Source of the DNA: a virus
Reading direction: 5' to 3' (one strand)
IMG/VR virus record: IMGVR_UViG_3300028393_004717
Span: 2,971 to 66,970 of that record
Length of the DNA: 64,000 nt
The notes under the pieces are model-generated. The model was given only the letters and a program-made list of their open reading frames with translations, was not told the origin of the DNA and searched no databases. Below, piece by piece: positions 2,359-26,747 of this stretch. How positions within the stretch are numbered: the first letter of the stretch is position 1; every line of letters starts with the position of its first letter. A program made the translations under genes and the position numbers.

Positions 2359-2764
2359 TTTTCTCCATGTTCCATAATCCATTGCGGTATTTACTTACTA
2401 TAAAATCTATAAGTTCACTTACAACAATACTAATTAAAATCTTTTTTATAGTTGAAGACATTGGTTTTAGCCATAATGGAAAAATAGAAATAACTATGTA
2501 GTCATATAATTGCCCTGCGACTAACATAACCACAGCTTTTTTATCTTCTCCTTTTGGTATTATTGGCTCAACAAATTGAATCATATCATCTATGGATTTT
2601 ATGATAAATATTGTTCCACTTAAAAGATAATCAGTTGGAATACTAACCCAACCACTTTTTTTGGGCTTTTCTTCATCCCATTTTTTCTTCAAATCAAAAA
2701 GACACTGTTCGCATTGAATTATTGCTGATTTTATTTCTTCTGTTGTCATTATTGTTTTTTTCAT
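2330..2764 (-). CDS. Hypothetical membrane-associated protein, possibly holin-like
   Basis: Amphipathic and hydrophobic helices and a GEDKKAVV motif; function is a guess. Confidence 0.4.
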   Translation of the reverse strand: MKKTIMTTEEIKSAIIQCEQCLFDLKKKWDEEKPKKSGWVSIPTDYLLSGTIFIIKSIDDMIQFVEPIIPKGEDKKAVVMLVAGQLYDYIVISIFPLWLKPMSSTIKKILISIVVSELIDFIVSKYRNGLWNMEKNDKKDPAQV

Positions 2765-2799
2765 TTTTTCTCCTGATGTTAAAGATATATATCATTAAT

Positions 2800-3666
2800 A
2801 TGAATATAATTGTAACTGGCGGTGCTGGTTTTGTTGGTAGCAATTTAGTCGATAGACTTATCGATCAAAATTATAATGTTTTAGTTTTAGACAATTTTGC
2901 TACTGGTTTTAAAGAAAATTTAAATAAAAAATCTGTTTTTTCAATGTTTGACATAAGGAACAATTGGAATGATTTACCCTTATTGCAAGGATTTAAGCCA
3001 GATATCATATATCATATAGCTGCTCTTGCTCGCATACAACCAAGCTTTAATAGACCTTATGAAACTTTAGATGTAAATGCTCAAGGAACTGTAAGAGCTT
3101 TGGAGTATGCAAAAAACAAAAATTGTAAACTTGTTTATTCGGGATCTTCTTCATTTTATTTTGATCCTCATGTGAATCCATATGCTCATTCGAAATGGAT
3201 TGGAGAAGAACATTGCAAGATGTACAACAAAACATACGGAGTTCCAATAGCCATAGCCAGATTTTTTAATGTTTATGGAAAAAGACATGTTCAACAAGGA
3301 GATAATGCTAATGTATTGGGAATATTTGAATACCAAAGATCTAATGGCCTTCCAATAACTATAACTGGTAATGGGGAACAAAGACGAGATTTTACAAATA
3401 TTGAAGATATATGTGATGGACTTATTTCTATGGGTAAAGAAAGTTGGAATGCAGATATTTTTAATTTAGGAAGAAGTTATAATTATTCGATAAATGAAGT
3501 TGCTAAAATGTTTAACCCAAAAGAAATAATTTATGTTCCATCAAGAATTGGAGAAGCAATATACACTCTTGCCGATATAAGTTTCTCAAAAGAAAAATTA
3601 AATTGGGAACCAAAACACAATTTGCCAGATTATATTGAAGGGTTTTTAAGAAATATTAAAAACTAA
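2800..3666 (+). CDS. NAD-dependent nucleotide-sugar epimerase/dehydratase (extended SDR)
   Basis: IIVTGGAGFVGS, YxxxK (PYAHSK), RFFNVYG, GEQRRDF. Start at MNIIVTG (2800). Confidence 0.93.
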   Translation: MNIIVTGGAGFVGSNLVDRLIDQNYNVLVLDNFATGFKENLNKKSVFSMFDIRNNWNDLPLLQGFKPDIIYHIAALARIQPSFNRPYETLDVNAQGTVRALEYAKNKNCKLVYSGSSSFYFDPHVNPYAHSKWIGEEHCKMYNKTYGVPIAIARFFNVYGKRHVQQGDNANVLGIFEYQRSNGLPITITGNGEQRRDFTNIEDICDGLISMGKESWNADIFNLGRSYNYSINEVAKMFNPKEIIYVPSRIGEAIYTLADISFSKEKLNWEPKHNLPDYIEGFLRNIKN

Positions 3667-4361
3667 TAAAGATATTTTCTCAATAAAAGCTTATCAAGCA
3701 ATGAATTCATAGCGGTTATTTGTTCTGGTTTTTTATCCCATCCACCGCTTTTACAAACTTGTTTAGCTTTAGCTTCTGGTATGTATTTAAATATAAATCC
3801 TTGACTAGAAAATCTAGTATGCAATTCTCTAGTCATTCCTCCATATTGATCAATCCTTTCGCAAAACATACCAGCACTAACCATGTTGCTTCTTCTAATG
3901 GCAGAAAAGTTTTCTACAAAACTTGTTTTTTGTGATCCTTTATCGCCAAACACCCATAGCTTATCATTTTTTGATCTTAAAGGTTTTATAAGATTGATCA
4001 AAGACAATTCTCCATCTGGTGTGAGCCTATCATCTAAAAATACTAAAAATTCACCTTTAGATTCTATGACTCCAAAATTTCTTGCTCTTGCCAACCCATA
4101 ATCTTTATTACCTTTATTATCAAATCTTGCACAATAAATATATTTCACATCCAACTCTTTTAAATTATTTTCAAATTTTGTTCCATTTGAATTATAATAT
4201 TTCTGATCACTATCATCACAAATGATTATTTCTTTTTTTTCATATTTTTGATTTTTAATATTATTGATATTTTCTAATGCAACCTCATATCTGTTATGAG
4301 TTGGAATTATAATTGATATCAAATCTTTATTTACAATTGTATTACTTCTTGGGGTTCTCAT
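3663..4361 (-). CDS. Glycosyltransferase family 2
   Basis: ISIIIPTHNR, IIICDDS, ARARNFG, FLVFLDD. Confidence 0.88.
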   Translation of the reverse strand: MRTPRSNTIVNKDLISIIIPTHNRYEVALENINNIKNQKYEKKEIIICDDSDQKYYNSNGTKFENNLKELDVKYIYCARFDNKGNKDYGLARARNFGVIESKGEFLVFLDDRLTPDGELSLINLIKPLRSKNDKLWVFGDKGSQKTSFVENFSAIRRSNMVSAGMFCERIDQYGGMTRELHTRFSSQGFIFKYIPEAKAKQVCKSGGWDKKPEQITAMNSLLDKLLLRKYLY

Positions 4362-5304
4362 AAATTTCCTTATATTTTAATCCAACATTTATAATTGATA
4401 TTTGAGGTTTTAATTTTTTAGAAAATTCTGATGTTTCCAACCAATATTCATGGGAAAAAAGTTTATCTGTGTCAAAAGGTTCCGCCAAGGTCAGTCCTCT
4501 TTTCATAAAATATTCATAGCTATAACTTTCTTTATTTATTGCAAAAGGTATACCAGAAGAAACATATTTTTGAGCTTTTGTCGGTGGCTTATGGCATTGA
4601 CTAAAATGAGTTATTGATTTTATATCTATCGCTGCTTTTGCTTGTTCCAGAAGTTCTTTTTGAACTTCTTCAGACCACACATATGATTTTATTCCATTTA
4701 TCGTATTGTAATCATCAGAAATTTGCATGGACAATCTTAATTCTCGACATAATTTTCCAGCCCCATTTTTTGCCCTTTCATTTTTTAAATCTGAGCATAT
4801 TCTTAATTCATAATTTATTGTATTCTTTTTAATGTAATCTAATAAAAATGGAATATATTGAAAGCTTCCTATCCACAATACAAAGCCATCTTTTTTATAA
4901 GAATTTGTTTCTTGAAGTGAAAATTTACTATGATGTTCAACAAAATGAACATTATTGTTTATTTTTTCAAAATATGGAATCCATCTTTCGCAATGCAATC
5001 CAATAGCATCACACTTTGAAAGAAAATTTAAATCTTCTTTTAGCTGATTTTCACTATGGTAAAAATCTATAGGACAATATAAAACTTTTGTTCCTTTGCT
5101 TTTAATTGTTTGTATATTGATTTTTTTTAAAGGATGTTTCACTAACATTAAAAAATCACAATTTGGTATTTTTTCAAGTGATCTAAAAGTTATCACATTG
5201 TAATACTTTGAAAGTTCTTTTGCCGTATCTTTTCCAACCCAATTCCATGAAGGCATATTAGATATTTCAGGACCAACAGCTAATGTCTTTTTTATTGTTT
5301 TCAT
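4342..5304 (-). CDS. Putative GT-B glycosyltransferase-like protein
   Basis: VLWIGS and KPPTKAQKYVSSGIP resemble the GT4 signature region; lies in a glycosylation gene cluster. Confidence 0.55.
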   Translation of the reverse strand: MKTIKKTLAVGPEISNMPSWNWVGKDTAKELSKYYNVITFRSLEKIPNCDFLMLVKHPLKKINIQTIKSKGTKVLYCPIDFYHSENQLKEDLNFLSKCDAIGLHCERWIPYFEKINNNVHFVEHHSKFSLQETNSYKKDGFVLWIGSFQYIPFLLDYIKKNTINYELRICSDLKNERAKNGAGKLCRELRLSMQISDDYNTINGIKSYVWSEEVQKELLEQAKAAIDIKSITHFSQCHKPPTKAQKYVSSGIPFAINKESYSYEYFMKRGLTLAEPFDTDKLFSHEYWLETSEFSKKLKPQISIINVGLKYKEIYENPKK

Positions 5305-5306
5305 AA

Positions 5307-7091
5307 CTAACGACTATTGTGAGAGAATCTTGTAAATAAATAATTTTCTTTTTTTATATCACCAGGGAAATTATTTATTTTTATATTTAATTTTCTAGCC
5401 ACATAATCAAAACTTATTTGATCTCTTTTTGATCCATTTGATATTTCTTCCCACCACATTTCGTTGAATTTTTTTATTTCATTTGAATGTCTTCTTAACA
5501 AAACAGTACATTCGCTTAATCCATTATTTTTAGGATATCCATCACGGATATATTTTTGAATCTGCTTTGTTATTGTAAAAGCATCATCTAGTTTTCGAGC
5601 AATACAAGTTTTTGCTTCATCGTAAACGCAATTTCTTTCATGATGCTTAAAAAGAGCTATGTCGCAATTAGAAAGATATATTTCGGCCAATCTGCTTATA
5701 TTGAAGGGAAATTTAATTCTTATAGATCCATCAATCCAAAGACTATATTCTTTGTCTGGAAAATAAATGTGTGATAATATCTTGTGAATTTTTGCATTTC
5801 TATTTGGATCTGAAAATGTTGTATGTATCTGCTTTGAATTCCATGTTTTTGAATCAATTGGATTTTCTAGAAACGCAACAAACTCAGTTCCATCATTGTG
5901 GTTTTTTTGATCTTTTAATTTGTCGTAATTATTGGATGCATTCGTAATTGCAGTGTATACAACAATATTTTTTGGATCTACTTCAATATTATTTTTTGAT
6001 ATATTTCTTTCCAAAAACGCCTTAAGCATATTTGTTTTTATCCACTTTTGATGAAATATATTTCTATTTTGTTTCACAAATTGATGTGAAGCTGAATTCG
6101 TGTGTCCTCCTTTGTGATATATGATGGAATCAGGAGTAAAAAGTATTTTGTATCCATGAGCATGTGTTTTCATGCATAAGTCGGAATCTTCCCAATATCC
6201 GATCCTATATTGTGTGTCAAATTCTCCAATCAATTTAAAAAAATCTGACGGAATCATAAAACAAGCACCAGTAACCATTTCTACTTCTCTAATTTCCATT
6301 AGATCTTTTGGTACATTATCCAAAGTAAAAGAATGATTGATATATTTCTTTTTGTATATGTGTTTTCCTATATGTAAAAAAGCACAAATACCTTCATCCC
6401 ATTCAGAGCCAAGTGAATCAATAATTATTCCTTCTTTAAGATGTAAATTTCCAACTATTCCAATGTTATTTTGTTTTTGAAAACAATCATACATTGGCTT
6501 TATCCAGTTCGGAGTAGTAATTGTATCTGCGTTTAAAAATATAAGATATTTTCCTTTTGCAAATTTTGCACCTAAATTACAAGCATTTGCGAAACCACCA
6601 TTTGTTCTTTCTACATGAATTATTTTCCCTATTCCTTTTTCTGGTTTTGGTTTGTTTGACCAAGATTTAAGAATTTCAATGTGACTTTTTTCTGGACAAC
6701 AATCATCCACATAAATTATTTCTTTTTTAAGATTGTCATGTTCATCGAAATTCCATGATTCGATTTGCTTTTTGATAAAATCTCTGCTTTTGTAACATGG
6801 TATTATTATGGATACATCAATTTCATTTTCTGATGATACAAACCAATGTGGGGTTTCTAATTCTTTGAAAGAAGGAGGAACATATGGAGATATATGAGGA
6901 GCAACACTTATCGTAACTGGAAAATTGTTTTTTTGTAATTTTTTATTTCTTACATTATTGTGAATTTCTATTTTTTTATTTTTCTGAAATAATTCTGCAT
7001 TTTCTGGGGTTATACGAAGATATGGATTGTTAGCTTTTTTGGCCAATGCTTCTTGTATCTTTATTTTATTTGATAATTTTTTATCATCCAT
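5307..7091 (-). CDS. GT2 glycosyltransferase fused to a C-terminal DUF616/TOD1-like glycosyltransferase domain
   Basis: VSIIIPCY, YVDDC, NGGFANACNLG, FLNAD, EDSDLC; then VYTAI...YD, SLWIDGS, HHERNCVYDEA, RDQISF. Start at MDDKK (7091). Confidence 0.88.
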   Translation of the reverse strand: MDDKKLSNKIKIQEALAKKANNPYLRITPENAELFQKNKKIEIHNNVRNKKLQKNNFPVTISVAPHISPYVPPSFKELETPHWFVSSENEIDVSIIIPCYKSRDFIKKQIESWNFDEHDNLKKEIIYVDDCCPEKSHIEILKSWSNKPKPEKGIGKIIHVERTNGGFANACNLGAKFAKGKYLIFLNADTITTPNWIKPMYDCFQKQNNIGIVGNLHLKEGIIIDSLGSEWDEGICAFLHIGKHIYKKKYINHSFTLDNVPKDLMEIREVEMVTGACFMIPSDFFKLIGEFDTQYRIGYWEDSDLCMKTHAHGYKILFTPDSIIYHKGGHTNSASHQFVKQNRNIFHQKWIKTNMLKAFLERNISKNNIEVDPKNIVVYTAITNASNNYDKLKDQKNHNDGTEFVAFLENPIDSKTWNSKQIHTTFSDPNRNAKIHKILSHIYFPDKEYSLWIDGSIRIKFPFNISRLAEIYLSNCDIALFKHHERNCVYDEAKTCIARKLDDAFTITKQIQKYIRDGYPKNNGLSECTVLLRRHSNEIKKFNEMWWEEISNGSKRDQISFDYVARKLNIKINNFPGDIKKENYLFTRFSHNSR

Positions 7092-7092
7092 T

Positions 7093-7452
7093 TTATTTAC
7101 CAGCGTTATTGGCACCGCCCATAGTTGGCACATTCATTTGTTGTTTATCTAATTTATTTTGAGCAGCCTGTATATTTGAAGAAGTTCCCTTAGCAATTGC
7201 TGCAACTGCTGAAAAATTCTTTTTAAACTTTGTTTCATAAGTTTTAACAAGTTGATTGATATAAAATTCCCATTGTGGTGCAGGTAAGTTTACTGCTTGT
7301 GCCATGAATTTATCAAACATGGATTTTGCTTGGTTTTGTTTAGCAGCATCTGTGATTTGTTGTGAGGGATTTGGATAAGTCGGTGGCATCTCGCCAGCAG
7401 GAGGAACTTCAACTTCATTTAACGACCAATCAGAAAATTTTTTCAATGCCAT
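7093..7452 (-). CDS. Hypothetical protein with capsid-targeting-like N-terminus
   Basis: SD GAGGTG precedes MALKKFSDWSLNE; Gln/Ala/Pro rich. Confidence 0.6.
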   Translation of the reverse strand: MALKKFSDWSLNEVEVPPAGEMPPTYPNPSQQITDAAKQNQAKSMFDKFMAQAVNLPAPQWEFYINQLVKTYETKFKKNFSAVAAIAKGTSSNIQAAQNKLDKQQMNVPTMGGANNAGK

Positions 7453-12843: not shown

Positions 12844-13394
12844 TGAAAAATGATTATCAAACTTTTTACAAAATGTTTTCAAAATTGGAAGGAATTAAAA
12901 TATTTCAAAGCGAAGAAGATCCTAGTACTTGGTTTTTCTTTTCTTGTAATTCTGAATACTCTTTTGCATTTGTTACCGCAATTGTAGAAGAAATAGGAGA
13001 TGATAATATTTGTAAAATGGTTTCTCTTGGACACCCAATAAGCACAGAAGATACGGCTTACCAACTTGTTTTTCATGCGGATAAAGAACAATTGTATAAA
13101 ACATTCATAGCTAAAATTAATGCTTATTTGGAAAATTCAAAAAATCTTAAACACGATGAATTTGGTAATCCAGATTTATCACTTGTGACAATTAAGCAAA
13201 TTGCAAAAGAACTTAAAAAAAGAAAGAATTTGTCGTTTGCCGTTGTTTGGATGGAAGATACAAATAAAGAAAATATCGCAATAGAAGGTAATGGAAATCC
13301 AACTCAAATAGTTGGACTATTAGCTAGAGGACTACACATGGCAATAGAATGGTCAGATAAATTTTTGAAGATAAGTAAACCAGAAAAAGATTAA
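12843..13394 (+). CDS. Hypothetical protein
   Basis: TAATG coupling to the upstream gene and SD GGAGG. Confidence 0.65.
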   Translation: MKNDYQTFYKMFSKLEGIKIFQSEEDPSTWFFFSCNSEYSFAFVTAIVEEIGDDNICKMVSLGHPISTEDTAYQLVFHADKEQLYKTFIAKINAYLENSKNLKHDEFGNPDLSLVTIKQIAKELKKRKNLSFAVVWMEDTNKENIAIEGNGNPTQIVGLLARGLHMAIEWSDKFLKISKPEKD

Positions 13395-13726
13395 GCAATA
13401 CCAATCTTTACTATCATCCAGTTGACAACAGAATTGTTGCTGGATGATATTGTAAATGTCCAATCATGACTTTGTGGAACTGGACTTATTTCTTTTGAAA
13501 TGTAAGGACAACCCTTATCGTTTGATGTGAGAAATATGGCGTAATCGGTAAAATCACCAGAGGGTGATGGAAATTTTATCGTGGCACTTGTGCCATTCAT
13601 TTTTTCTATCCCAGCAGCAACTATTTTTGGGCCAACAAGATTTGTTATACTCAATGAAGCTCTAGATAAATCATTCGATTTATAAGCCGAACCAATTCCT
13701 GTTCCTGTTACGCTTGAAGCACCCAT
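13391..13726 (-). CDS. N-tag array member 6, small beta domain (paralog of 16573-16974)
   Basis: MGASSVTGTGIGS N-terminus; C-terminus WMIVKIG matches YMVVKSG of the 16573 ORF. Confidence 0.7.
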   Translation of the reverse strand: MGASSVTGTGIGSAYKSNDLSRASLSITNLVGPKIVAAGIEKMNGTSATIKFPSPSGDFTDYAIFLTSNDKGCPYISKEISPVPQSHDWTFTISSSNNSVVNWMIVKIGIA

Positions 13727-13817
13727 TTATACTCCTTAATATATGTAAGCTTCAAAAAATAAAAAAGTAATGTGGTTTTTACACATCACCTTTTTATTTT
13801 TTAAAATTAATTTAAAA

Positions 13818-14399
13818 TTATGTATTGGTACCAAAAGGATTACTTACAGTTTGACCACCATCCGTAATGACATCACCTTGTATCCAGTAACTGGTTCCCA
13901 AACTAATCGCCACCACATAACTTCCTATGATACCACCAGTCTTATTGTTGGTTCCATATTCTATTTTGTTACTCGTAGCACTGGCAGCAAAAGTTCTAGT
14001 TTCAGCTACGCCATTTTTGTGTAGCGTTAAACTACCAGTCATTAGATCAGAAAAAGGATAACATTGAATAAAGAATTGATCTGGTCGAACCGTGGTCAAA
14101 AAGCGGAATGTCTGACCAATCGTAGTAGTGCTTAATTCTGGTAATGTTATGAATCCATTTGGCCCGTGATCTAACAAAAAAAGTTTCCCATCATCAGATG
14201 CAGATATCTGATGAACAGGAAGTGATACAACAGATTCGGTGTACGACACTATAGTCGAAATTTCAGAGGAAGATGATGCATTAGCAATTGCAGAGGTCAC
14301 ATCTACTGCTAGATTTAGTAGTTTTACATTATTTTGAATTCTTGGTAATGATCTCTCTACTGCTCCATTTCCTGTTCCTTCATTGGTTTTAGCTCCCAT
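13818..14399 (-). CDS. N-tag array member 5, putative head decoration/fibre protein (C-domain paralog of 15125-15706)
   Basis: MGAKTNEGTGNGA; ITLP...FRF...TGG..G...PF domain. Confidence 0.7.
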   Translation of the reverse strand: MGAKTNEGTGNGAVERSLPRIQNNVKLLNLAVDVTSAIANASSSSEISTIVSYTESVVSLPVHQISASDDGKLFLLDHGPNGFITLPELSTTTIGQTFRFLTTVRPDQFFIQCYPFSDLMTGSLTLHKNGVAETRTFAASATSNKIEYGTNNKTGGIIGSYVVAISLGTSYWIQGDVITDGGQTVSNPFGTNT

Positions 14400-14445
14400 A
14401 ATAATCTCCTTTTTGTTATGTTAAATGAATATATTTGCATCTTGG
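14331..14445. repeat. Direct repeat copy A (5' end of gene + RBS + half hairpin), similar to 14981-15095
   Basis: About 115 bp colinear with 14981-15095, including ccataataatctcctttttgttatgt and tgcatcttgg. Confidence 0.85.
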
Positions 14446-14489
14446 AAAAAACAAAGTGATATATCAAAAAATAAATCACTTTGTTTTTT
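14446..14489. terminator. Inverted repeat / terminator between array members
   Basis: aaaaaacaaagtgat ... atcactttgtttttt. Confidence 0.6.
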
Positions 14490-14521
14490 TAAATTATCAA
14501 CTTTGTTTTAATGATGCTATA

Positions 14522-15049
14522 TTAAAGTGCAGCAATTGCAGTTTTAAAAGCATCAAAATCAGCAGCAGCAGCAGTCAAGGTCTTTAAATCAGATATTTTA
14601 ATCCAAATAGCATTGCCGTTAAAATCTTTAATGTTTCCACCATCTGGTAATGTCATAATACCATCATTGTGAAATCTCCAGTTGTTATCGTCAACATCAA
14701 TGTTCACTTGATGTTGGTGATTGAGGCTGTTTCCACCATCAAGATTATCATCAAGGTTATGATTGCCTACTGTAATGCTTACATCAGGACCATAACTAGG
14801 CATCATGTCTCTTTGACCGCCCCACCATAATCCTAAATATTCTGTGTTACTTGAAGCCCAAATTACTGATTCTTGATCATTCTGTCTTGATGCCCCTAGT
14901 GTTCCAACTAAAAGACCACCAGTAAAAGCAGTAAGATCAGTTATGTTTGATAGATTTCTTACATTTTCTGGTTTGATATTATTTTGAATTCTCGGAAAAG
15001 AATTCTCTACTGCTCCATTGCCTCTTCCTTCTGTTGTTGTAGCTGCCAT
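14522..15049 (-). CDS. N-tag array member 4, fibre-like protein
   Basis: MAATTTEGRGNGA; C-terminal helix LKTLTAAAADFDAFKTAIAAL resembles phage fibre ends. Confidence 0.7.
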   Translation of the reverse strand: MAATTTEGRGNGAVENSFPRIQNNIKPENVRNLSNITDLTAFTGGLLVGTLGASRQNDQESVIWASSNTEYLGLWWGGQRDMMPSYGPDVSITVGNHNLDDNLDGGNSLNHQHQVNIDVDDNNWRFHNDGIMTLPDGGNIKDFNGNAIWIKISDLKTLTAAAADFDAFKTAIAAL

Positions 15050-15095
15050 AATAATCTCCTTTTTGTTATGTGGAATGAATAAATCTGCATCTTGG
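14981..15095. repeat. Direct repeat copy B, similar to 14331-14445
   Basis: See copy A. Also 15025-15063 matches 15682-15720 at 38 of 39 nt. Confidence 0.85.
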
Positions 15096-15114
15096 TTTTT
15101 GCCAAGATGCAGAT
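15083..15114. terminator. Perfect 13-bp hairpin between array members
   Basis: atctgcatcttgg-tttttg-ccaagatgcagat. Confidence 0.65.
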
Positions 15115-15124
15115 CAAATTAAAC

Positions 15125-15706
15125 TTAGGAAACTGCGTTACTGAAAGGGGTTACTTCAGTAGCTGTCTGAGTAAGAACTGCTCTTACATGGAATATGCCA
15201 GCAGCCATATCGAGTATTTCGACATGATTACCTTTTTTACCACCTTTGGTAGAGCCATCCATAGTAATCGTATCATCACTAGCACCTGCAATCCACATAT
15301 CGATTGCGGTAGGTGTGCCAGACAATGGTGTTTCGTCATCAGAACCAAAAGCAACGCCACTCATGATGTCAGTTCCATTGGCTACCTGAATCTTGTAAAC
15401 ATTGCTAGTTACAGTAGTTTTAACATAAAACTTGTAGGTGTCACCAGTTCCAGTAGCTGCTGGAAGAGTAACGACAACACCTGCTAATCTATCTAAAATT
15501 AAAGGTATGTTAGCCTTGCTAGAATCAAGAGTTATTGTCGCAGTATCAAGAACAAATGGTGTTTTTGATAATGCGTTATTATCGAGTTTTGCTGCGGTCA
15601 CAGCGTTTGGTTCAATGTTTACTGTTTTAACAGAACCATTGAGAATCAATGGTTTGATGTTTGATGCAGAACCATTTCCTGTTCCTTCTGTTGTTGTAGC
15701 TGCCAT
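15125..15706 (-). CDS. N-tag array member 3, putative head decoration/fibre protein
   Basis: MAATTTEGTGNGS; NAVTAAKL repeat; VTLPAATGTG...KGG..G...TPFS domain resembling phage head-associated proteins. Confidence 0.72.
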   Translation of the reverse strand: MAATTTEGTGNGSASNIKPLILNGSVKTVNIEPNAVTAAKLDNNALSKTPFVLDTATITLDSSKANIPLILDRLAGVVVTLPAATGTGDTYKFYVKTTVTSNVYKIQVANGTDIMSGVAFGSDDETPLSGTPTAIDMWIAGASDDTITMDGSTKGGKKGNHVEILDMAAGIFHVRAVLTQTATEVTPFSNAVS

Positions 15707-15774
15707 AGTAATCTCCTTTTATATATATAAAAACCAATCAAACACAATAAACTTAGCTTAACATAAAGACTAAG

Positions 15775-16491
15775 TTACCTTGCGTATTCAGAAACTTTCA
15801 ACACCGCACTGTTGGTGTTCAATGTAAGGATGTCATCTGCTCCATCCCTCTTTGCTTGAATTTTAATGGTCAACGCACTCGTGACAGAATTTGAAAAAAC
15901 CATGGCGATGGGAAACAGCACCGCACTTCTAGTGCCACCACCTGCACTATTCAACCATGTTTGGTTTCTCCATGTTATCTCAACATCGTTGACCGTTATT
16001 CTGGATCTGAAATTATCTGCCAAGCCTCCACCGACAGCATAAGTTGAGTTGTACTCGATATACAAGGAACTGCTGCCAGAAACTGGCGTGTACGAAACCG
16101 ATGCAAAATCAACATAATTGTTATTATCACCATTACTTACTTCGCCAGCGGTGAATGTATAGAAACTCGTATTTAAATGTTGTCCATTTAATCCCCCTCT
16201 GATGTAACCATCTGCGGTTATATTGTTGCCAGACGAAATGTCACCATCAGCGGATATAGAGCCACCAGACAAAATGTCGCCATCAGCGGATATGTTGTTA
16301 TTAGAGGTTATATTTCCCTCTGCACTGACATTTGATTCGGTTGTCATATCGCCAGTTGCGTTGATGTCGTATTTCCAATTATGGAGAATGTCAACGCCAA
16401 GATTTTCAGCTTTCACTACACCATTGATGATAAGTGGCTTTTGTTTGCTTACAGATCCTATTCCCACACCCTCTTGACTTGTAGCTCCCAT
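15775..16491 (-). CDS. N-tag array member 2, beta-helix repeat fibre-like protein
   Basis: MGATSQEGVGIGS; tandem 12-aa repeats around (I/V)(S/T)A(D/E)G(D/N/Y)I; C-terminal beta-sandwich-like domain. Confidence 0.72.
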   Translation of the reverse strand: MGATSQEGVGIGSVSKQKPLIINGVVKAENLGVDILHNWKYDINATGDMTTESNVSAEGNITSNNNISADGDILSGGSISADGDISSGNNITADGYIRGGLNGQHLNTSFYTFTAGEVSNGDNNNYVDFASVSYTPVSGSSSLYIEYNSTYAVGGGLADNFRSRITVNDVEITWRNQTWLNSAGGGTRSAVLFPIAMVFSNSVTSALTIKIQAKRDGADDILTLNTNSAVLKVSEYAR

Positions 16492-16532
16492 AATAATCTC
16501 CTTTTTAAAAAAAATTTATACGGACATGGAAA

Positions 16533-16562
16533 TTTCCAGCGTGAAGAAATCCACGCTGGAAA
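16533..16562. terminator. 11-bp hairpin between array members
   Basis: tttccagcgtg-aagaaatc-cacgctggaaa. Confidence 0.6.
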
Positions 16563-16572
16563 AAAAGTTAAA

Positions 16573-16974
16573 TTACTTTCTTACATTGATGCCGCTTTTA
16601 ACGACCATGTACATGAAGGTTTGCGTATTGTTATCCCCAGTATGAAGGATAAAACCAGCAAATCCGCTATCGAATCCATCATTGCTGTAGTTTTCGTTAG
16701 CATCGAACTTAGCAATGTGTGGTGGTTTGTTGTTCGCCAAATATAAAGAATCATCAAGATCTGATTGCATTGCAAATACTGAGTAATTATCAGGATTTAA
16801 TGGAAGTTCTGGAAATCTGACAATCACTTGCCAGTTTCCATGTTCGGCTGAAATAACCGTAGTCGCAATACCAGTCAAAACGATATGTGGATCGTTAATG
16901 GTAATGTTCTTGATTGCTGGTCCAACCTTGCTGGCTGAACCTTGACCTACGCCCGTTACGCTAGTAGCACCCAT
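16573..16974 (-). CDS. N-tag array member 1
   Basis: SD AAGGAGG; MGATSVTGVGQGS; domain paralogous to 13391-13726. Confidence 0.7.
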   Translation of the reverse strand: MGATSVTGVGQGSASKVGPAIKNITINDPHIVLTGIATTVISAEHGNWQVIVRFPELPLNPDNYSVFAMQSDLDDSLYLANNKPPHIAKFDANENYSNDGFDSGFAGFILHTGDNNTQTFMYMVVKSGINVRK

Positions 16975-17083: not shown

Positions 17084-17650
17084 ATGACTTATGAAAACAG
17101 TCCGATTATAAAATCATATCAAAAACAAATCCTTTATGGAACCATATTGGGAGGATCTTCAATTGTAAATCCAACTTATGGAAGAAATTGTTATTTGGCC
17201 ATGAGAGATAATAATTTGAATTGGCTTTCATATAAAATAGATGAACTTAAAGAATTTTTTAAAATAGATAGTAGTACAATTAAAAAAGATAAAAACACTT
17301 ATCGATGCTATTCGGTTGCTTATCCTTGTTTTAATGATTTGTATAGAACATTTTACAAAGAAGGTAAAAAGGTCGTAACTAAGGAGATATTAGAATCACT
17401 CAACGACCTAGCTTGGATGATTTGGTATATCGATTCTGGTAGGAAAAGCAAAAGAAAGGTTTATCTTAGAACACAAAAATTTGGAGAAGAGGGAACTGTG
17501 ATAATAGCAGATTATTTTAATTCTCTTGATTGTTTTTGTGAAATTAAAAAACAAAAAGATAGATTCGAAATTGTATTTGACAATAAAGGCTCACAAGAGT
17601 ATCTTAAAACATTCGCACACAGAATACCAAATTTTCTCACAAAAGAGTAG
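17084..17650 (+). CDS. LAGLIDADG (two-motif) homing-endonuclease homolog, probably inactive
   Basis: ILYGTILGGSS (GxxLGDG with D changed to G) and AWMIWYIDSG (WxMDDG with D changed to S); LRTQKF. Confidence 0.8.
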   Translation: MTYENSPIIKSYQKQILYGTILGGSSIVNPTYGRNCYLAMRDNNLNWLSYKIDELKEFFKIDSSTIKKDKNTYRCYSVAYPCFNDLYRTFYKEGKKVVTKEILESLNDLAWMIWYIDSGRKSKRKVYLRTQKFGEEGTVIIADYFNSLDCFCEIKKQKDRFEIVFDNKGSQEYLKTFAHRIPNFLTKE

Positions 17651-18319: not shown

Positions 18320-18425
18320 ATATTGGAATAATTTTTGTAATTATTTTAATATTTTGCAGACTCGTTCTTTTGCACAACCAAATACATGAATATTATGAAG
18401 ATCAATAGTATTTAGTGATTGAAAT

Positions 18426-19241
18426 ATGATAAAAACAACAAAAGATGCAGAGCAAGAAGGTGTGTTGGAAAATTGTATTTACAATGCAAATTGTCTTGAT
18501 TTAATGAAACATATTAAAAGCAATAATATTGATATGGTTCTAACATCTCCTCCTTACGATAATCTTCGAACATATAGTGGAAGTTTAGATTGGGGCGAAC
18601 ACATTTGGAAACCAGCAATTCAAGAATTGTTTAGAGTAATAAAGGAAGGTGGGGTAGTAGTTTGGGTAGTCGGAGATGCTACCATCAAGGGCAATGAGAC
18701 AGGAACTTCATTTAAACAAGCACTTCACTTTAAAGATGTAGGATTTAATCTTCATGATACGATGATATGGCATAAGACCGCCATTTTTCCTCACCACTTG
18801 AACGCACAACGATACAAACAACAGTTCGATTACATGTTCGTGTTCACAAAGGGAAGCGTAAATACATACAATCCTATTCACGATATACCAAATGAATCTG
18901 CTGGTAAAACTTTTCAAATTAAAAAAAAGATTAAGACATCAGACAATGGACGATATAATGGGCGAACCAAAAACCTAAAAATATCTGATTTTCGTATGCG
19001 TGACAATGTTTGGCGTGAAGGTCGTTCTGGCTATAAAGGACATCCAGCCCCTTTCCCAGAGAAACTTGCCTATGACCATATTTTATCATGGTCAAATGAA
19101 GGTGACATAATACTAGACCCATTTGCTGGTAGTGGAACAGTAGGTAAAATTGCAAAACAAATAAATCGTAAATATATCCTTATAGAAAAAGAATCAAAAT
19201 ATACAGATATAATCAATAAAAGAATAAATGAAAATCAATAA
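18426..19241 (+). CDS. Beta-class N4/N6 DNA methyltransferase
   Basis: Motif IV TSPPY precedes HPAPFP and motif I DPFAGSGT. Confidence 0.93.
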   Translation: MIKTTKDAEQEGVLENCIYNANCLDLMKHIKSNNIDMVLTSPPYDNLRTYSGSLDWGEHIWKPAIQELFRVIKEGGVVVWVVGDATIKGNETGTSFKQALHFKDVGFNLHDTMIWHKTAIFPHHLNAQRYKQQFDYMFVFTKGSVNTYNPIHDIPNESAGKTFQIKKKIKTSDNGRYNGRTKNLKISDFRMRDNVWREGRSGYKGHPAPFPEKLAYDHILSWSNEGDIILDPFAGSGTVGKIAKQINRKYILIEKESKYTDIINKRINENQ

Positions 19242-19748: not shown

Positions 19749-20765
19749 ATGCAAATTATCAATGAAATAAAACTTGGATTTAATGATGTCCTCATAAAGC
19801 CAAAACGATCTAAAACAGCCAGTAGAAAAGATGTAGTCCTATCAAGAAGCTTTAAAGGACTAAATAGCAATTCAATAATAAAAGGAGTGCCAATCATTGT
19901 TGCCAACATGGATACTGTTGGAACTTTGAAAATGGCAGAATCATTAGGTAAATTAAATATTTTTACTTGTCTTCATAAATTCTATGAATTGCCTGTACTA
20001 CAGAAATTCTTTGATTCTAATGAATACTCAGAATTCGCATTTTACACAACTGGAATTACCGATGACGATTTTATCAAACTGAAAGAAATGAAATCTACAA
20101 ATCGAAAAATAAACATCTCAATTGATGTCGCTAATGGCTATACAGAACACTTTCAAAACAAAGTCAAAGAAATTAGATCTATATTCCCAGATTCATTTAT
20201 CATGGCTGGAAATGTATGTACCCCAGAAATGGTTCAAGAACTCTTATTGTCAGGTGCAGCAGATTGTATAAAAGTCGGAATAGGAGGTGGTAGCGTATGT
20301 AAAACTCGGATGGTTACAGGAGTAGGATATCCCCAACTTAGTGCCGTAATTGAATGTGCAGAAGCAGCACATGGATTAAATGGACTTATATGTTCAGATG
20401 GTGGATGCAAAGAATCTGGTGATGTGGCAAAAGCTTTCGGAGCAGGATCAGACTTTGTAATGCTTGGAGGAATGTTTGCTGGTACAGATGAATGTGAAGG
20501 AGAATGGATATTTGAAGATGATACGAAATATTTGAAGTTTTATGGAATGTCTAGTGAAGAGGCAAATAACAAATATTGTGGCGGAATGAAGGATTATAGG
20601 GCTTCAGAAGGCGAAGTTAAATTTGTTGGCTATAAAGGTAGTGCCGAAACTGTAGTAAATCAAATTCTTGGAGGACTAAGATCTGCATGTGCTTATGTTG
20701 GAGCTAATCAATTGAAAGATTTAAGCAAATGCACCACTTTTGTAAGATGTAATTCTATAAAGTGA
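19749..20765 (+). CDS. guaC: GMP reductase
   Basis: MQIINEIKLGFNDVLIKPKRS, IDVANGY, KVGIGGGSVCKTR, YRASEG, GGLRSAC. Confidence 0.95.
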   Translation: MQIINEIKLGFNDVLIKPKRSKTASRKDVVLSRSFKGLNSNSIIKGVPIIVANMDTVGTLKMAESLGKLNIFTCLHKFYELPVLQKFFDSNEYSEFAFYTTGITDDDFIKLKEMKSTNRKINISIDVANGYTEHFQNKVKEIRSIFPDSFIMAGNVCTPEMVQELLLSGAADCIKVGIGGGSVCKTRMVTGVGYPQLSAVIECAEAAHGLNGLICSDGGCKESGDVAKAFGAGSDFVMLGGMFAGTDECEGEWIFEDDTKYLKFYGMSSEEANNKYCGGMKDYRASEGEVKFVGYKGSAETVVNQILGGLRSACAYVGANQLKDLSKCTTFVRCNSIK

Positions 20766-20768
20766 AAT

Positions 20769-22037
20769 TTAAATATGAATTTTATAAAAAATGGACTTTA
20801 AATAACTTTTTGTTATTCCATCATTTGATTTTTCTGCATAATCTTTCATCAAATGCATCATTTTAAGCTTACCTTTTTTGTCTTTTGATGCAATGTTTGT
20901 TTTTGCAAATGGATCATTTTTTATATTGTATAATTCTTCTGGTTCCCTAAATCTAATTTTGTTATGCATCTTTATATCAGTTCTAGTTATTCCACACATA
21001 CTCAAAGATTCACTGTTGCAACCACATTCAATAAATTCATTTTTTCCATTAGACCAAAAATTAACAATATAACAATAATCTTCATTGTGTATTGCCCTAG
21101 TTTGAAAATTTCTGTTTCCCCATAATTGGCATAAACAAGTGTAAGCATTATTTTTAAATGAAGATCCTTTTTTAATCGTATTAAAATAAGATGTTCCATC
21201 CATATCTTTTTTTTGCAATCCTAGTAATTCAAGAATGGTTGGCATTATATCCACACTAGAAACATAAGTATCGCTTATCTTAGGCTTTAAAACTTCTGGA
21301 CAATGCCATATCAAAGGAATCCTACTGCTAAAATGATAACAATTAGCCTTAACAAATGGAAATGACATACCATGGTCACTAGTGAAAATTATAAGAGTGT
21401 TATCTGTTTTGCCACTTTCTTTTAAAGCACGAATAATCTCGCCAACAGTCAAATCACACCTTTTGACCCCTTCATAATATTGTGCTAATTCAGTTCTAAC
21501 TTCTGGAATATCAGGAAGGAAACCAGGCACTTTCACACTGCTAGGATCATATCTTGTTTTTTTCTCAAATGGCCTATGTGGATAATGAGAATTTACCATG
21601 AGAAAAAAAGGATCTGGAACCGATGAAAAAAAAGACTTACAAAAGTTGTAATAAGCATTTATATTTTTACCATGACCAGTTATTTTATCGTAACCTAATA
21701 TCTTCTGACTCCATTTGAATTTATGGTCTGGACATAAATGCTCCGCTTTTCCAATTATCCCAGTTGTATATCCTCTATTTTTTAAAATGTCTGGAAGTGT
21801 AGTTATATGTTCATTTATACAATTGAATCCAACAGCACCATTATTCCAAGGGTAAAGACCTGTCATCCATACTGATCTAGATGGCTGACAAAGACCTACT
21901 GTGGTGTGTGCATTTTCAAAAAATACACCTTCTTGTCCTAATTTGTCTAAATTTGGTGTTATGTCTGGAATTTCACATCCAGACATACCAGTAGAATTGT
22001 AACTCATGTCATCGGCAGATATAAATACTATATTCAT
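20769..22037 (-). CDS. Sulfatase (N-sulfoglucosamine sulfohydrolase-like)
   Basis: NIVFISADD, CQPSR (CxPxR), GIIGK.H, PHRPF, FTSDHG, EELYN...DP. Confidence 0.93.
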   Translation of the reverse strand: MNIVFISADDMSYNSTGMSGCEIPDITPNLDKLGQEGVFFENAHTTVGLCQPSRSVWMTGLYPWNNGAVGFNCINEHITTLPDILKNRGYTTGIIGKAEHLCPDHKFKWSQKILGYDKITGHGKNINAYYNFCKSFFSSVPDPFFLMVNSHYPHRPFEKKTRYDPSSVKVPGFLPDIPEVRTELAQYYEGVKRCDLTVGEIIRALKESGKTDNTLIIFTSDHGMSFPFVKANCYHFSSRIPLIWHCPEVLKPKISDTYVSSVDIMPTILELLGLQKKDMDGTSYFNTIKKGSSFKNNAYTCLCQLWGNRNFQTRAIHNEDYCYIVNFWSNGKNEFIECGCNSESLSMCGITRTDIKMHNKIRFREPEELYNIKNDPFAKTNIASKDKKGKLKMMHLMKDYAEKSNDGITKSYLKSIFYKIHI

Positions 22038-22039
22038 CA

Positions 22040-22444
22040 CTACCGCATAGCTTGATACAAACTTGTAATTGGAGTTAAATCCATAGACTTTGCACCCATA
22101 CTAGCAACTGGAATGCCACCACACCCACCCTCTTCTTCATCTTCATCTTTGTCGTTTTTAAATGCATGGCCAACATCAGACATGTACGCTCTGCAAACCG
22201 AAATTTTATTTTCCATCCACTCATCAAGCTGGTCATGATCTTCTAGCATAGAAAGAATGAGGTCAGCGTATTCCTTTATATCTTTTAGGTTATTCATCAA
22301 CATTCTGTTTCCATCGTTTGAGGCTTCAAGTTTGTTACTATCATCCGTAGCTATACTATGGTTTTCGCATCGATCATAGTACTCACTTTCAGAAATGATA
22401 CCAGCTAAATAAAACTTGTAGTTTTCATTTTTTTTATCAAACAT
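22040..22444 (-). CDS. Hypothetical protein, possibly virion-internal
   Basis: LAGIISESEY motif and a QLDEWMENKIS helix. Confidence 0.6.
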   Translation of the reverse strand: MFDKKNENYKFYLAGIISESEYYDRCENHSIATDDSNKLEASNDGNRMLMNNLKDIKEYADLILSMLEDHDQLDEWMENKISVCRAYMSDVGHAFKNDKDEDEEEGGCGGIPVASMGAKSMDLTPITSLYQAMR

Positions 22445-24623: not shown

Positions 24624-26747
24624 TTAGAACAATCTTTGATTACAAACAGTAATTGCAGCGACATAAGCTCCTGCTTTGCCATTGCAAGTTCCTGCTGCAA
24701 TATTAGCTCTTGTGCATTGTGGATAAAGTAATTTCCACCCCGCACAAGTACAACCAGATGGAGTTGATGTGGTTGAAAAATGACAAGGAAAACCAATTGT
24801 GGTTGTGCAAACAGTTTTTGCACAAGATCTTATTTCCTTTACTTCTTTTACTACTAAACCTAAAAATGTTTGAGCAATCAAAGTTATATCTTCTTCACTT
24901 GTTGCAGTTTGATCCATTCTGCCAAAAGTTAAAACATATAGTTCTTTTCTTCCAGTCAAACCAGTCAAAATTTGATCAGAACTGTTTTCTATATCCTCAA
25001 AACTCTGTGTTATTCCAGATACAACACCATCAACAATAATGATTTGATTTATAGCGGGTTCATTAGAATCATTATCATAAGAAGTTTTGTAAAATACAGC
25101 ATAGTTGCTTCCATTTACACTTATATCAATAGTACCAGTATTTGCGTATCCTTGCCCATCCTGCCCTGTTCCGCCTGTAATGCTGAATTCTTCGATACTG
25201 ATATTGTTTGCACCAAGAACTAAAAGACCGGGGTACATATTAGTAAAATAAGTACTTCCAGAACCAAAATAACTTGAGCCATCTTCTATAGTTCCATCAA
25301 GTGAAGGTAAATCGTAATTTACATCATCTATGGCTATATCATAGTTGGTTTCATTTTCATCACTCCATCCATAAAAGAAAGAATGAGTGAAAGGTATAGA
25401 TTGATCATCTTGAATGCTTTCGTATGTGTTGGTTAGATTTGTATTAAAAAAGGAACCTCCATCATACATGTCATCTCCACCATCATTTATACCCATAGCT
25501 CTCATTGTTGACTTTAAAGGAGTTCCAACCAAAGCACCTACAGAGTTTAGTTTTGCACAACCACCAGCCATATCAGCATTTAGATAATTGAACTGAACTG
25601 TACAAAGGCTATCTTTATATCTGTAGAAAAATCCTGCACAAAATATATTTCCGCTATTATCTAAGCGAATTTTTTGCACACGATCATTGAAACCTTCTCC
25701 AACCAAAAAAGTATCATCTTTTGTTCCATTAGAATTAAATCTAATAATTCGACCCAATCTTGCGTTATTGTATGCGTAGAACCAACCGCCAGCTAAAATT
25801 TTACCATCAGATTGAATGGCTAAATTTTGAACATTTTGATCGTTTGGAAAAGCTAAACCGGGAGATGATGTTTGAAAAGTACTATCTAAATCACCATTTG
25901 TTTCTAATCTAACTATGCCAATGTTACAAGATGATCTTTTATATGAAGTAAACCAACCTCCAACTATAACTTTACCATTAGATTGTACTTGAATATCATT
26001 AACACGATTATCGAATCCAGAACCTACATCAAAAGTTACATCTGTTGTTCCATCAGATGACAACTTAACAATTCTATTTGAAAATTGTCCACCTACATAG
26101 ATATCACCACCAGAGTTGATGGCGATTGCGTATACAAAATTATTGAATGATGGCATATTTGATGTGAAAGTAGAATCAAAAGCTCCATTTACACCAAGTT
26201 TAGCCAAACGATTTGAACTATTTCCATCATAAGTAGAAAAAATACCACCTACTAAAAGACTATCATCAGACAACACTTTACATACAAATGCGTGATTATT
26301 GAAACCATCTCCAACAACAAAAGTATTATCAATACTTCCGTTTGTATTTAATCTTACAATTTTGCTATAATAATCACCATTGACGGTTTCAAAGTGACCA
26401 ATCACTATAAGTTTTCCACTTGATTGTTGTACTATTTCACGAATATGTCCATCATATGAGTAAAATTTTGGAGATGTAAATGTTTCATCTAAAGAACCAT
26501 TAGCATTAAATCTTTTTAAAACAGTGTAATTATCACCATCGTACAAACCACTCATACCGCCAACTACAATTTTTCCATCAGATTGGATGCAAAGAGCATT
26601 TCCCATTCCAATGTAGTCATAATCTGTAACATCTGATAAAAAAGCATCTGGTTGATCAGCAAAATTGAATTTGTTTGGTATCAAATTAGTTACTGAAACA
26701 TAACTCGTATTCATCCCTGTCAATAAATTTGGTAAAGAAATAGACAT
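24624..26747 (-). CDS. Delta-60-repeat beta-propeller protein with Cys-rich C-terminus, putative virion adhesin
   Basis: About seven repeats of QSDGKI..GG.F......I.RL..NG.LD.TF. Confidence 0.8.
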   Translation of the reverse strand: MSISLPNLLTGMNTSYVSVTNLIPNKFNFADQPDAFLSDVTDYDYIGMGNALCIQSDGKIVVGGMSGLYDGDNYTVLKRFNANGSLDETFTSPKFYSYDGHIREIVQQSSGKLIVIGHFETVNGDYYSKIVRLNTNGSIDNTFVVGDGFNNHAFVCKVLSDDSLLVGGIFSTYDGNSSNRLAKLGVNGAFDSTFTSNMPSFNNFVYAIAINSGGDIYVGGQFSNRIVKLSSDGTTDVTFDVGSGFDNRVNDIQVQSNGKVIVGGWFTSYKRSSCNIGIVRLETNGDLDSTFQTSSPGLAFPNDQNVQNLAIQSDGKILAGGWFYAYNNARLGRIIRFNSNGTKDDTFLVGEGFNDRVQKIRLDNSGNIFCAGFFYRYKDSLCTVQFNYLNADMAGGCAKLNSVGALVGTPLKSTMRAMGINDGGDDMYDGGSFFNTNLTNTYESIQDDQSIPFTHSFFYGWSDENETNYDIAIDDVNYDLPSLDGTIEDGSSYFGSGSTYFTNMYPGLLVLGANNISIEEFSITGGTGQDGQGYANTGTIDISVNGSNYAVFYKTSYDNDSNEPAINQIIIVDGVVSGITQSFEDIENSSDQILTGLTGRKELYVLTFGRMDQTATSEEDITLIAQTFLGLVVKEVKEIRSCAKTVCTTTIGFPCHFSTTSTPSGCTCAGWKLLYPQCTRANIAAGTCNGKAGAYVAAITVCNQRLF

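Follow-up and report, generated by a model that had tools for sequence, protein, structure and literature searches.

Six small genes sharing an N-terminal tag in a fragment of a huge uncultured phage: variable cassettes and a possible role in virion-surface display

The capsid spike of Pseudomonas phage Pa223, gp52, is described as a homotrimer located at the capsid 3-fold axes and composed of an attachment segment, a triple beta-helix, and a knob (10.1101/2025.06.11.659172). Residues 2 to 41 of gp52 are reported to be "solely responsible" for capsid anchoring, a role in host adsorption is proposed, and the spike is more variable than the tail fiber (10.1101/2025.06.11.659172). A 64,000-nucleotide (nt) stretch of viral DNA (positions 2,971 to 66,970 of IMG/VR record IMGVR_UViG_3300028393_004717; hereafter the window) carries on its minus strand an array of six small genes, numbered 1 to 6, whose products begin with one conserved N-terminal tag and continue into different C-terminal domains. 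The array may be a set of cassettes for virion-surface knob proteins that would dock through this common N-terminal arm, with the capsid as the favored site, a reading held with a little less than even confidence.

Gene 4 resembles gp52 in combining a short N-terminal segment, a stalk, and a C-terminal knob; its modeled knob superposes on that of gp52, and its product is predicted to be a trimer. It differs in lacking the ∼160-residue triple beta-helix middle domain (gene 4 encodes 193 amino acids [aa] in all) and in showing no detectable sequence homology to gp52 (14% identity in the structural alignment). As described, gp52 is also the product of a single gene, with no family of different domains on one arm, and belongs to a T=7 HK97-like capsid. 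The capsid fiber of phage 7-7-1 has been modeled after the adenovirus fiber as a trimer of N-terminal tail, shaft, and knob, with the tail inserted into a capsid vertex protein (PMC12796354). A trimer (predicted in the array) with a conserved N-terminal tail and a distal knob is the feature that these fibers have in common with the array; they differ from it in having one fiber type per site and no sequence relation, and the attachment in 7-7-1 is itself a model.

T4-type internal proteins are reported as unrelated small proteins behind a short conserved N-terminal leader, encoded at a hypervariable locus (PMC3012670). The array likewise has a short conserved leader on unrelated proteins, and a gp21-type protease is encoded in the window. 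The site motif of the T4 prohead protease is (L/I)-x-E; the six array tags differ in lacking it, and the cargo differs in having predicted fiber-tip folds and a predicted trimer. Several receptor-binding proteins, including CBA120 TSP1 to TSP4 and T4 gp9/gp10, attach through conserved N-terminal adaptors. Different distal domains on a common N-terminal module, together with the gp10-like knob predicted for gene 4 (Z 8.8 to 9.5), recall these branched tailspikes. Their adaptors, however, are folded modules of at least ∼100 residues on large proteins, whereas the array has a flexible peptide of ∼13 to 30 residues on proteins of 111 to 238 aa.

At the DNA level, variable genes of T4-type phages are reported to lie between conserved promoter-early stem-loop (PeSL) elements, which combine a stem-loop with a Shine-Dalgarno sequence and within which recombination occurs, so that single cassettes are inserted, deleted, or replaced between close relatives (PMC2839356). 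Stem-loops (in four of five spacers) and a conserved ribosome-binding site (RBS; five to six copies) also lie between the variable genes of the array, and between the window and a close relative, contig G004, entire cassettes differ and the breakpoints fall within the conserved element. The array departs from PeSL in that its conserved element extends 40 to 90 nt into coding sequence and encodes a peptide and that its genes look like late structural genes rather than early ORFans. Scans of the array for a sigma-70-type promoter, the early promoter of PeSL, showed no evident consensus.

The N-terminal tag and its relatives

A sequence-only reading of the window had picked out the six co-directional open reading frames (ORFs), and all six were recovered with the positions and N-termini that it gave (Table 1). 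The DNA pattern ATGGSNGCN(13)GGN(4)GGN(4)GGNKC, which encodes M-(G/A)-A-x4-G-x-G-x-G-(S/A), matched six times across both strands of the window, in each case at the start of an array gene; in 100 dinucleotide-preserving shuffles the mean was 0.00, and 0 of 100 contained a match. A relaxed scan for the octapeptide in all six frames returned the same six sites and no others. Alignment of the six proteins showed M1, A3, G8, G10, G12, and N29 to be invariant. The label "GxGxG tag" used in the sequence-only reading misnames the conserved core, which across relatives is the first eight residues, with the consensus M-(G/A/S)-A-(T/S)-(S/T)-x-(T/E/Q)-G.

The conservation extends to DNA around the start codons. 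A 41-nt repeat covering the tag is present in six copies and a 22-nt repeat comprising RBS and ATG in five, and a 136-nt repeat (84% identity) is common to the leader and 5′ end of gene 2 and those of gene 3. Strong RBSs had been proposed and were found: AAAGGAGATTA(T/C)TATG precedes four genes, these being the strongest Shine-Dalgarno sites among 83 upstream regions compared in the window, and AAGGAGG and AAGGAG precede the remaining two. Inverted repeats of varying quality had been said to separate the genes; four of the five spacers fold into strong stem-loops (z −4.3 to −6.5; 0 of 200 shuffles as stable), and the spacer between genes 5 and 4 does not (z −0.11). Inspection by eye and a consensus scan yielded no convincing promoter motif shared upstream of the array genes; promoter-like sites in the region numbered 24 against 14.8 ± 4.2 expected, and their placement upstream of genes was inconsistent.

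To place the tag among relatives, homologues of the gene-4 product were gathered by whole-protein search without reference to the tag, giving 272 at an E value of ≤0.001. Among the 120 best of these, the tag was present in 59 (starting at residue 1 in 56 and preceded by an upstream start call in 3), and it was recognized by eye in one more (P0047). The remaining 60 were mostly bare domains of 141 to 145 aa, including those of Rhizobium phages, or had other N-terminal extensions. Homologues of ∼160 aa (P0076, P0080, P0091 to P0093, and P0099) have another conserved N-terminus, MASTTFSGPV..., which suggests that other phage lineages put their own N-terminal adaptor on a gene-4-type knob.

Genes 1 and 6 belong to a second, small-protein family (the small family), for which an exhaustive profile search gave 365 representatives of clusters at 50% identity with E values of ≤0.001, 226 of them at ≤1e−10. 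The octapeptide was present in 147 of the 150 best representatives, at residue 1 in 144 and behind an upstream start in 3. In these 144 it was followed by GxGxG(S/A) (n = 94), GxSGxG(S/A) (n = 20), a sequence with another residue after the third Gly (n = 22), or other sequence (n = 8).

IMG/VR was also scanned with the DNA pattern plus an RBS, giving at least 147 matches at no fewer than 126 loci. After filtering, 88 of the matches listed (74 unique proteins) were true tags, and the rest were low-complexity sequence or members of an unrelated MGAPVLIGAGIGA family. In this set, M1, G/A2, A3, G8, G10, and G12 are invariant by virtue of the pattern and the filter, which is circular; the independent checks of tag conservation are the gene-4 homologues and the small family. 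Gly-rich proteins of 209 to 272 aa starting MGAPVL(I/A/V)G also fit the DNA pattern (24 of the 147 matches; L008, L016, L017, L019, and others), and this family resembles a glycine-zipper membrane protein of small viral contigs.

When the 80 unique tagged proteins (the 74 plus the six of the window) were grouped by single linkage on the sequence downstream of the tag, five groups were obtained: the small family (40), the gene-4 family (18), a Gly/Asp-repeat family of 314 to 345 aa (9), a gene-2/3 group held together solely through a common N-segment (8), and the gene-5 group (5). Tags of the small-family type ("SVTG") are also borne by gene-4-type proteins, and some small-family proteins have "TTQG" tags. 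The tag is a separable N-terminal module that precedes unrelated C-domains. Codons for the conserved Gly residues differ synonymously (GGA, GGT, GGC, and GGG), which argues that selection acts on the tag peptide.

Two kinds of known signal were considered for the tag and rejected. N-myristoylation (MG...) does not fit the bacterial Shine-Dalgarno sites, a position 6 that is mostly Val or Thr-x, or the two of six tags that start with MA. A Sec or lipoprotein signal does not fit tags that have neither a hydrophobic core nor a Cys. Covalent ligation through a new N-terminal Gly was set aside, as nothing supporting it was found.

A T4-type major head protein (MCP) is encoded in the window, and MCPs 77 to 99% identical to it were found in 13 of 21 larger tag-bearing contigs and in 3 of 4 others. 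The remaining tag-bearing contigs are fragments and yielded no MCP, and with the window MCP as query no other capsid type was seen. CheckV completeness of the tag-bearing contigs implies genomes of ∼0.5 Mb, and the tag family appears to be confined to one lineage of phages of about this size. The only close relative of the MCP among GenBank phages is that of LR756511.1 (uncultured, 595 kb; 78% identity), all others being below 60%; in LR756511.1 the strict tag pattern had 0 matches, and the profile identified one variant-tag gene of 363 aa. Copy number varies, as had been anticipated, with six tagged genes in the window, five in G004, three in G001 (complete, 527 kb), two in G002, and one in G003. 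Relatives with a single invariant gene, which the sequence-only reading had named as evidence against itself, are thus not what the family as a whole shows.

Comparison with described families gave little. The six array proteins matched 0 PHROG families at an E value of ≤0.1, and nothing in Pfam reached its cut-off; neither library matched them to head decoration or cement proteins, Hoc, or Soc. Pfam likewise had no match to six gene-4 relatives (fused or untagged), GenBank phages gave none with the whole array (BLASTN) or with genes 6 and 3 (TBLASTN), and the gene-4 family profile returned only chance matches among PDB sequences (E ≥0.07, no phage chain). As far as a literature search with tag strings, the family libraries, and the unnamed gene-4 matches show, the tag is undescribed.

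Cassette turnover and mosaic genes

In G004, the sequences flanking the array are 94 to 96% identical to those of the window, but the array itself differs and holds five tagged genes. Gene 1 has a near-identical copy there, gene 4 is 75% identical at the DNA level, and gene 6 diverges past its first ∼31 residues. Gene 5 is replaced by a tagged Gly/Asp-repeat protein of 320 aa, and gene 3 is missing beyond its 5′ end. The orthologues of gene 2 share 92% identity over nt 40 to 105, falling to 64% in the tag (nt 1 to 39) and to 53% in the 45 nt upstream, and these 45 nt are, within the window, 91% identical to those of gene 3, the gene absent from G004. Because identity drops in both the tag and the upstream sequence, and the latter matches gene 3, breakpoints are placed inside tag-coding DNA. 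This exchange of the gene-2 tag and upstream region between the window and G004 bears out the proposal that the genes recombine through their conserved 5′ ends.

Parts are also shared within the array, largely as the sequence-only reading had described. Alignment confirmed AVExS(L/F)PRIQNNxK in genes 2 and 3 and KPLIxNGxVK in genes 4 and 5. The C-domain common to genes 2 and 4 was recovered as a distant relationship (BLASTP, 30% identity; E value, 8e−9), which was also seen when residues 40 to 193 of gene 2, with tag and linker removed, were compared with the gene-4 family by hhalign (probability, 86.6%; E value, 4.5e−6; 112 columns). The domain common to genes 1 and 6 (BLASTP, 26% identity; E value, 4e−6) falls within one profile family. 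Combinatorial shuffling thus holds to the extent that the shared parts are real, but the sharing of domains inside the array is old (24 to 30% identity) rather than recent.

Predicted folds and possible docking sites

The AlphaFold2 model of gene 4 (81 sequences; mean predicted local distance difference test score [pLDDT], 82.9) contains an all-beta domain at residues ∼50 to 193, mostly with pLDDT above 90. Residues 1 to 50 have pLDDT of 44 to 64, and the ∼35 residues between tag and knob were modeled as short helices and coil. The best solved match was the Pa223 capsid spike gp52 (PDB 9ny6; Foldseek E value, 1.1e−4), and VIA-align superposed model residues 46 to 180 on chain residues 196 to 294 of its knob with a Z of 10.7 and a root-mean-square deviation of 2.1 Å over 99 residues, at the 14% identity given above. 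Next were baseplate proteins of Klebsiella phage KP1 (Z 9.2 to 10.5), N-terminal domains of CBA120 TSP4 (Z 9.3 to 9.5; 7rfo_C, 9.5), T4 gp9 (1qex_A; Z 8.9), and T4 gp10 in the baseplate (5iv5_AC; Z 8.8). Despite the gp10-like beta-sandwich fold, the Pfam model T4_gp9_10_N did not match gene 4.

For gene 6 (26 sequences; mean pLDDT, 74.9), AlphaFold2 predicted a small beta-sandwich at residues 30 to 126, with residues 1 to 22 below 50. Foldseek found nothing for this model at an E value of ≤0.001. A wide VIA search gave as best match the C-terminal domain of the cyanophage Pam1 tailspike (Z 7.7), followed at Z 5.7 to 6.5 by R2 pyocin fiber tips, LKA1 gp49, K64-1 depolymerase, and the K1 lyase C-terminus, all of these values being below 8, in the range that the tool calls common, and hence a lead. 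The K1 lyase match is echoed by a sub-threshold Pfam match of gene 1 to K1-lyase_C (E value, 0.0027; 18.6 bits against a cut-off of 27). Atlas leads place gene 3 near phage fiber families at 0.88 to 0.92, including those of T4 gp36, gp37, and gp9/10, and gene 5 near viral clusters that include C1q-type knobs at 0.89; gene 5 also has weak, sub-threshold beta-solenoid matches in Pfam. The predicted folds of genes 4 and 6 and the lead for gene 3 agree with the earlier assignment of the C-domains to fiber or spike tips.

Trimer modeling, which the sequence-only reading had suggested, was informative for gene 4: three copies scored 0.94 against 0.00 for the best control, and in the calibration of the tool the mark applied to this score was passed with 20 of 30 solved pairs as against 1 of 23 single chains. 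The runs agreed in at least 83% of contacts, with partner pLDDT of at least 86. The confident interface comprises residues 18 to 50 (the KPLIxNGxVK segment and its sequel) plus the knob, with the tag (residues 1 to 17) outside it. Gene 4 is therefore predicted to form a homotrimer with a free or flexible tag.

In the mechanism that is favored for the array, each of six small and abundantly translated late proteins would begin with a flexible N-terminal arm, which a short trimeric stalk may follow, and carry at its distal end a beta-sandwich knob or a lectin-like domain such as those that tip phage spikes and fibers. The arm, with the first eight residues as its core followed by a Gly-rich stretch, would be a lineage-specific adaptor that docks the trimers onto one common outer site of the virion, for which the T4-type capsid is favored, as with the Pa223 spike, and a single particle could then show a mixture of different binding knobs. 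Each gene would be an insulated cassette of stem-loop, strong RBS, and tag-coding DNA, and cassettes could be gained, lost, and re-headed between related phages because the conserved 5′ element would serve as a recombination site. A virion location, docking, and a capsid site may be inferred from the Pa223 precedent, the disordered tag, a capsid-adjacent homologue, and the association with one capsid lineage. That homologue is an untagged gene-4 relative in Rhizobium phage RHph_Y25, whose gene immediately follows the major head protein gene, upstream of the tail genes. The distance between a tagged gene and the MCP gene is usually 2 to 22 kb (one contig has ∼40 kb), and in G001 a tagged gene lies ∼2 kb downstream of the MCP gene on the same strand. 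Overall, the sequence-only reading, in which a docking peptide attaches interchangeable fiber or decoration domains to a common virion site, is upheld in part, namely, for the modular tag, the fiber- or spike-tip domains, the variable cassettes, and the 5′ recombination. A more specific version, in which trimers from no fewer than five unrelated families of knobs or lectins dock through one universal peptide of ∼8 to 13 residues onto a single repeated site of a giant T4-type capsid, giving a mixed coat of up to six specificities that differs by strain, while the docking DNA doubles as the recombination site, is rather doubtful as a whole.

Several points weigh against docking of the array proteins on the capsid. 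In the window, 12 kb separate the capsid gene from the array, which sits amid nonstructural genes, and the distance between the MCP gene and a tagged gene is ∼100 kb in G003 and ∼270 kb in LR756511.1. The knob domain of the Rhizobium phages, with ∼10 N-terminal residues, may bind the virion without an arm. Among the GenBank phages searched, no isolate carries array proteins, and the best match of the tag profile to PDB sequences had an E value of 0.86. The fold of gene 4 cannot tell capsid from tail, because domains of gp9/gp10, TSP4, and KP1 also match it (Z 8.8 to 10.5), and the gene-6 values stay in the common range. The trimer score was calibrated with two copies, not three, and with an author-built alignment supplied; it may partly reflect similarity to trimeric knobs already solved, and the low pLDDT of the tag could simply reflect poor prediction.

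The same architecture and docking could serve small accessory fibers or whiskers that plug into one adaptor socket of the tail, neck, or baseplate in the manner of branched tailspikes, as suggested by gene-4 matches to T4 gp9, gp10, CBA120 TSP4, and the KP1 baseplate that are nearly as good as that to the capsid spike, by the tailspike and tail-fiber tips that match gene 6 best, and by the gp36, gp37, and gp9/10 families among the leads for gene 3. Such a site is judged unlikely given that the best single match of gene 4 is the capsid spike, that the untagged Rhizobium phage homologue adjoins the capsid gene upstream of the tail genes, that 111 to 238 aa is very small for tail fibers, and that the PHROG scan recognized no tail gene near the array in the window. 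The conserved N-terminus might alternatively have no docking role and act in folding or trimer nucleation, in recognition by a modifying enzyme or chaperone, or in translation initiation, with the domains attaching themselves. The bare Rhizobium phage knob without any arm is in keeping with this, as is DNA conserved across the RBS, the ATG, and the first codons, where sequence influences translation; a second residue of Gly or Ala also implies removal of Met and thus a defined new N-terminus. Nevertheless, synonymous changes at the conserved Gly codons indicate that it is the peptide that is under selection, the confident part of the predicted trimer interface excludes the tag, and a role in translation would not require eight residues to be conserved over five domain families and over MCPs down to 77% identity, which makes a nondocking role improbable.

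Soluble or host-acting lectin-like late proteins, sharing an N-terminal sorting signal and absent from the virion, would suit an array flanked by nonstructural genes (those for a LAGLIDADG endonuclease and methyltransferases). This is slightly less probable again, as neither a hydrophobic signal-peptide core nor a lipobox can be read in the tags, fiber or spike parts of virions make up the great majority of the fold relatives, and a homologue sits in the structural module of small phages. Least probable of all is a capsid targeting sequence like that of the T4 internal proteins, by which cargo would enter the prohead core, lose its tag to a gp21-like protease, and be injected, for example, as an anti-defense protein. 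The window does encode a gp21-type protease and a gp23-type MCP, the locus is hypervariable between close relatives, and Glu occupies position 7 in four of the six array tags. However, the MCP propeptide region contains LNE, LLE (twice), and INE, while the tags have T/S-x-E or no Glu, and Glu is at position 7 in only 3 of 94 small-family tags and 24 of the 74 IMG/VR tags listed. The cargo, moreover, resembles fiber-tip beta-sandwiches with a predicted trimer rather than small charged globules, and the same knob occurs untagged beside a capsid gene in small phages.

Genome surroundings and significance

The record from which the window was taken is a 66,970-base fragment with an estimated completeness of 14%. 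PHROG scans of 70 further window ORFs identified head and packaging genes (Table 1), and its gene content marks the window as part of an uncultured phage of ∼0.5 Mb that has a T4-type head. The record is labeled a provirus by its source; given the T4-type head module, an MCP 78% identical to that of a 595-kb phage, and no tRNA in the window, this label is probably wrong, and the record is probably a fragment of a huge virulent-type phage.

Table 1. Positions of the array genes, their repeats and stem-loops, and other features in the window
Feature	Position	Strand	Details
Gene 1	13391-13726	−	111 aa; tag, linker, L-x-G-P-x-I-V-x-A-G, small beta domain
Gene 2	13818-14399	−	193 aa; tag, AVERSLPRIQNNVK segment, knob domain (distant relative of the gene-4 knob)
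Gene 3	14522-15049	−	175 aa; tag, AVENSFPRIQNNIK segment, unique C-domain
Gene 4	15125-15706	−	193 aa; tag (1-13), stalk segment (∼18-50), knob (∼50-193)
Gene 5	15775-16491	−	238 aa; tag, KPLIxNGxVK segment, three 12-residue repeats, C-domain
Gene 6	16573-16974	−	133 aa; tag, Gly/basic linker, small beta-sandwich (∼30-126)
36-nt tandem repeats in gene 5	16202-16309		Repeat family D5; encode its three 12-residue repeats
5′ cassette of gene 3	14960-15095	−	Repeat D3; part of stem-loop, untranslated region, RBS, first ∼90 coding nt
5′ cassette of gene 2	14310-14445	−	Other copy of the 136-nt direct repeat D3
Stem-loop, genes 6/5 spacer	16533-16562	−	13-bp stem; −23.4 kcal/mol; z −4.95; 0 of 200 shuffles equal
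Terminator-like stem-loop, genes 4/3 spacer	15082-15115	−	14-bp stem, then T-rich tail; z −5.33
Stem-loop, genes 3/2 spacer	14446-14489	−	Inverted repeat I3, 19 nt, 95% complementary; z −4.27
Long AT-rich stem-loop, genes 2/1 spacer	13750-13806	−	Inverted repeat I1; z −6.48
T4-type major head protein (MCP)	29004-30449		PHROG E value, 5e−84; aligns with T4 gp23
gp21-type head maturation protease	31433-32113		phrog_207; E value, 2e−49
Portal protein	34716-37244		PHROG
Large terminase	48268-50082		PHROG
LAGLIDADG homing endonuclease	17084-17650	+	Pfam LAGLIDADG_2; E value, 1e−28
DNA methyltransferase	18426-19241	+	phrog_67; E value, 1e−57
Dehydrogenase	19749-20765	+	phrog_9582; E value, 1e−108
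Sulfatase	20769-22040	−	Pfam E value, 1e−47
Nucleotide-sugar epimerase and 608-aa glycosyltransferase	2722-7133		
Beta-propeller protein	24624-26747	−	DUF5122 repeats; E value, 6e−60
Beta-propeller protein	43820-45751	−	RCC1-like; phrog_7220; E value, 3e−45
539-aa ORF	27179-28798	−	Homing/HNH endonuclease PHROG matches; E value, 7e−45
152-aa ORF	60555-61013	−	∼Six AAAG/AAGA repeat units directly upstream of start codon

The LAGLIDADG gene lies directly upstream of the array. It has the same place in G004 and adjoins the two small tagged genes in G001 (L144, 9919-10485; L145, 9804-10385), in each case divergently oriented. Around the methyltransferase gene, a stretch of ∼800 bp (18410-19210) has no counterpart in G004: BLASTN blocks, otherwise 90 to 95% identical, stop at 18409 and restart at 19211, which looks like a single-gene indel. 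Immediately downstream of the MCP gene, the 539-aa ORF also has Mom-like and GNAT acetyltransferase matches in Pfam and a weak head-closure match, an odd fusion for a head module. In relatives, a second and shorter MCP-like ORF (G001:C1:289607-290413 and G003:C1:98769-99122, also in G011 and G019) is 45 to 49% identical to the C-terminal half of the MCP; it may be a T4 gp24-like vertex protein or else a paralogue. The two beta-propeller proteins are large and may have a structural or adhesin-like role.

Knowledge of huge phages comes almost entirely from metagenomes, and the majority of their genes lack an assigned role. The tagged proteins belong to a large family, with 365 clusters in the small family alone and 272 gene-4 homologues, that has no annotation in Pfam or PHROGs. 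The use of coding sequence as a recombination linker extends the idea of modular shuffling developed for PeSL. If the tag does act in docking, this hypervariable locus would be a surface-display system that tunes adsorption, and it would provide a second and far more modular example of the recently described capsid-spike principle, as well as a natural peptide, very short, with which cargo could be fixed to large capsids.

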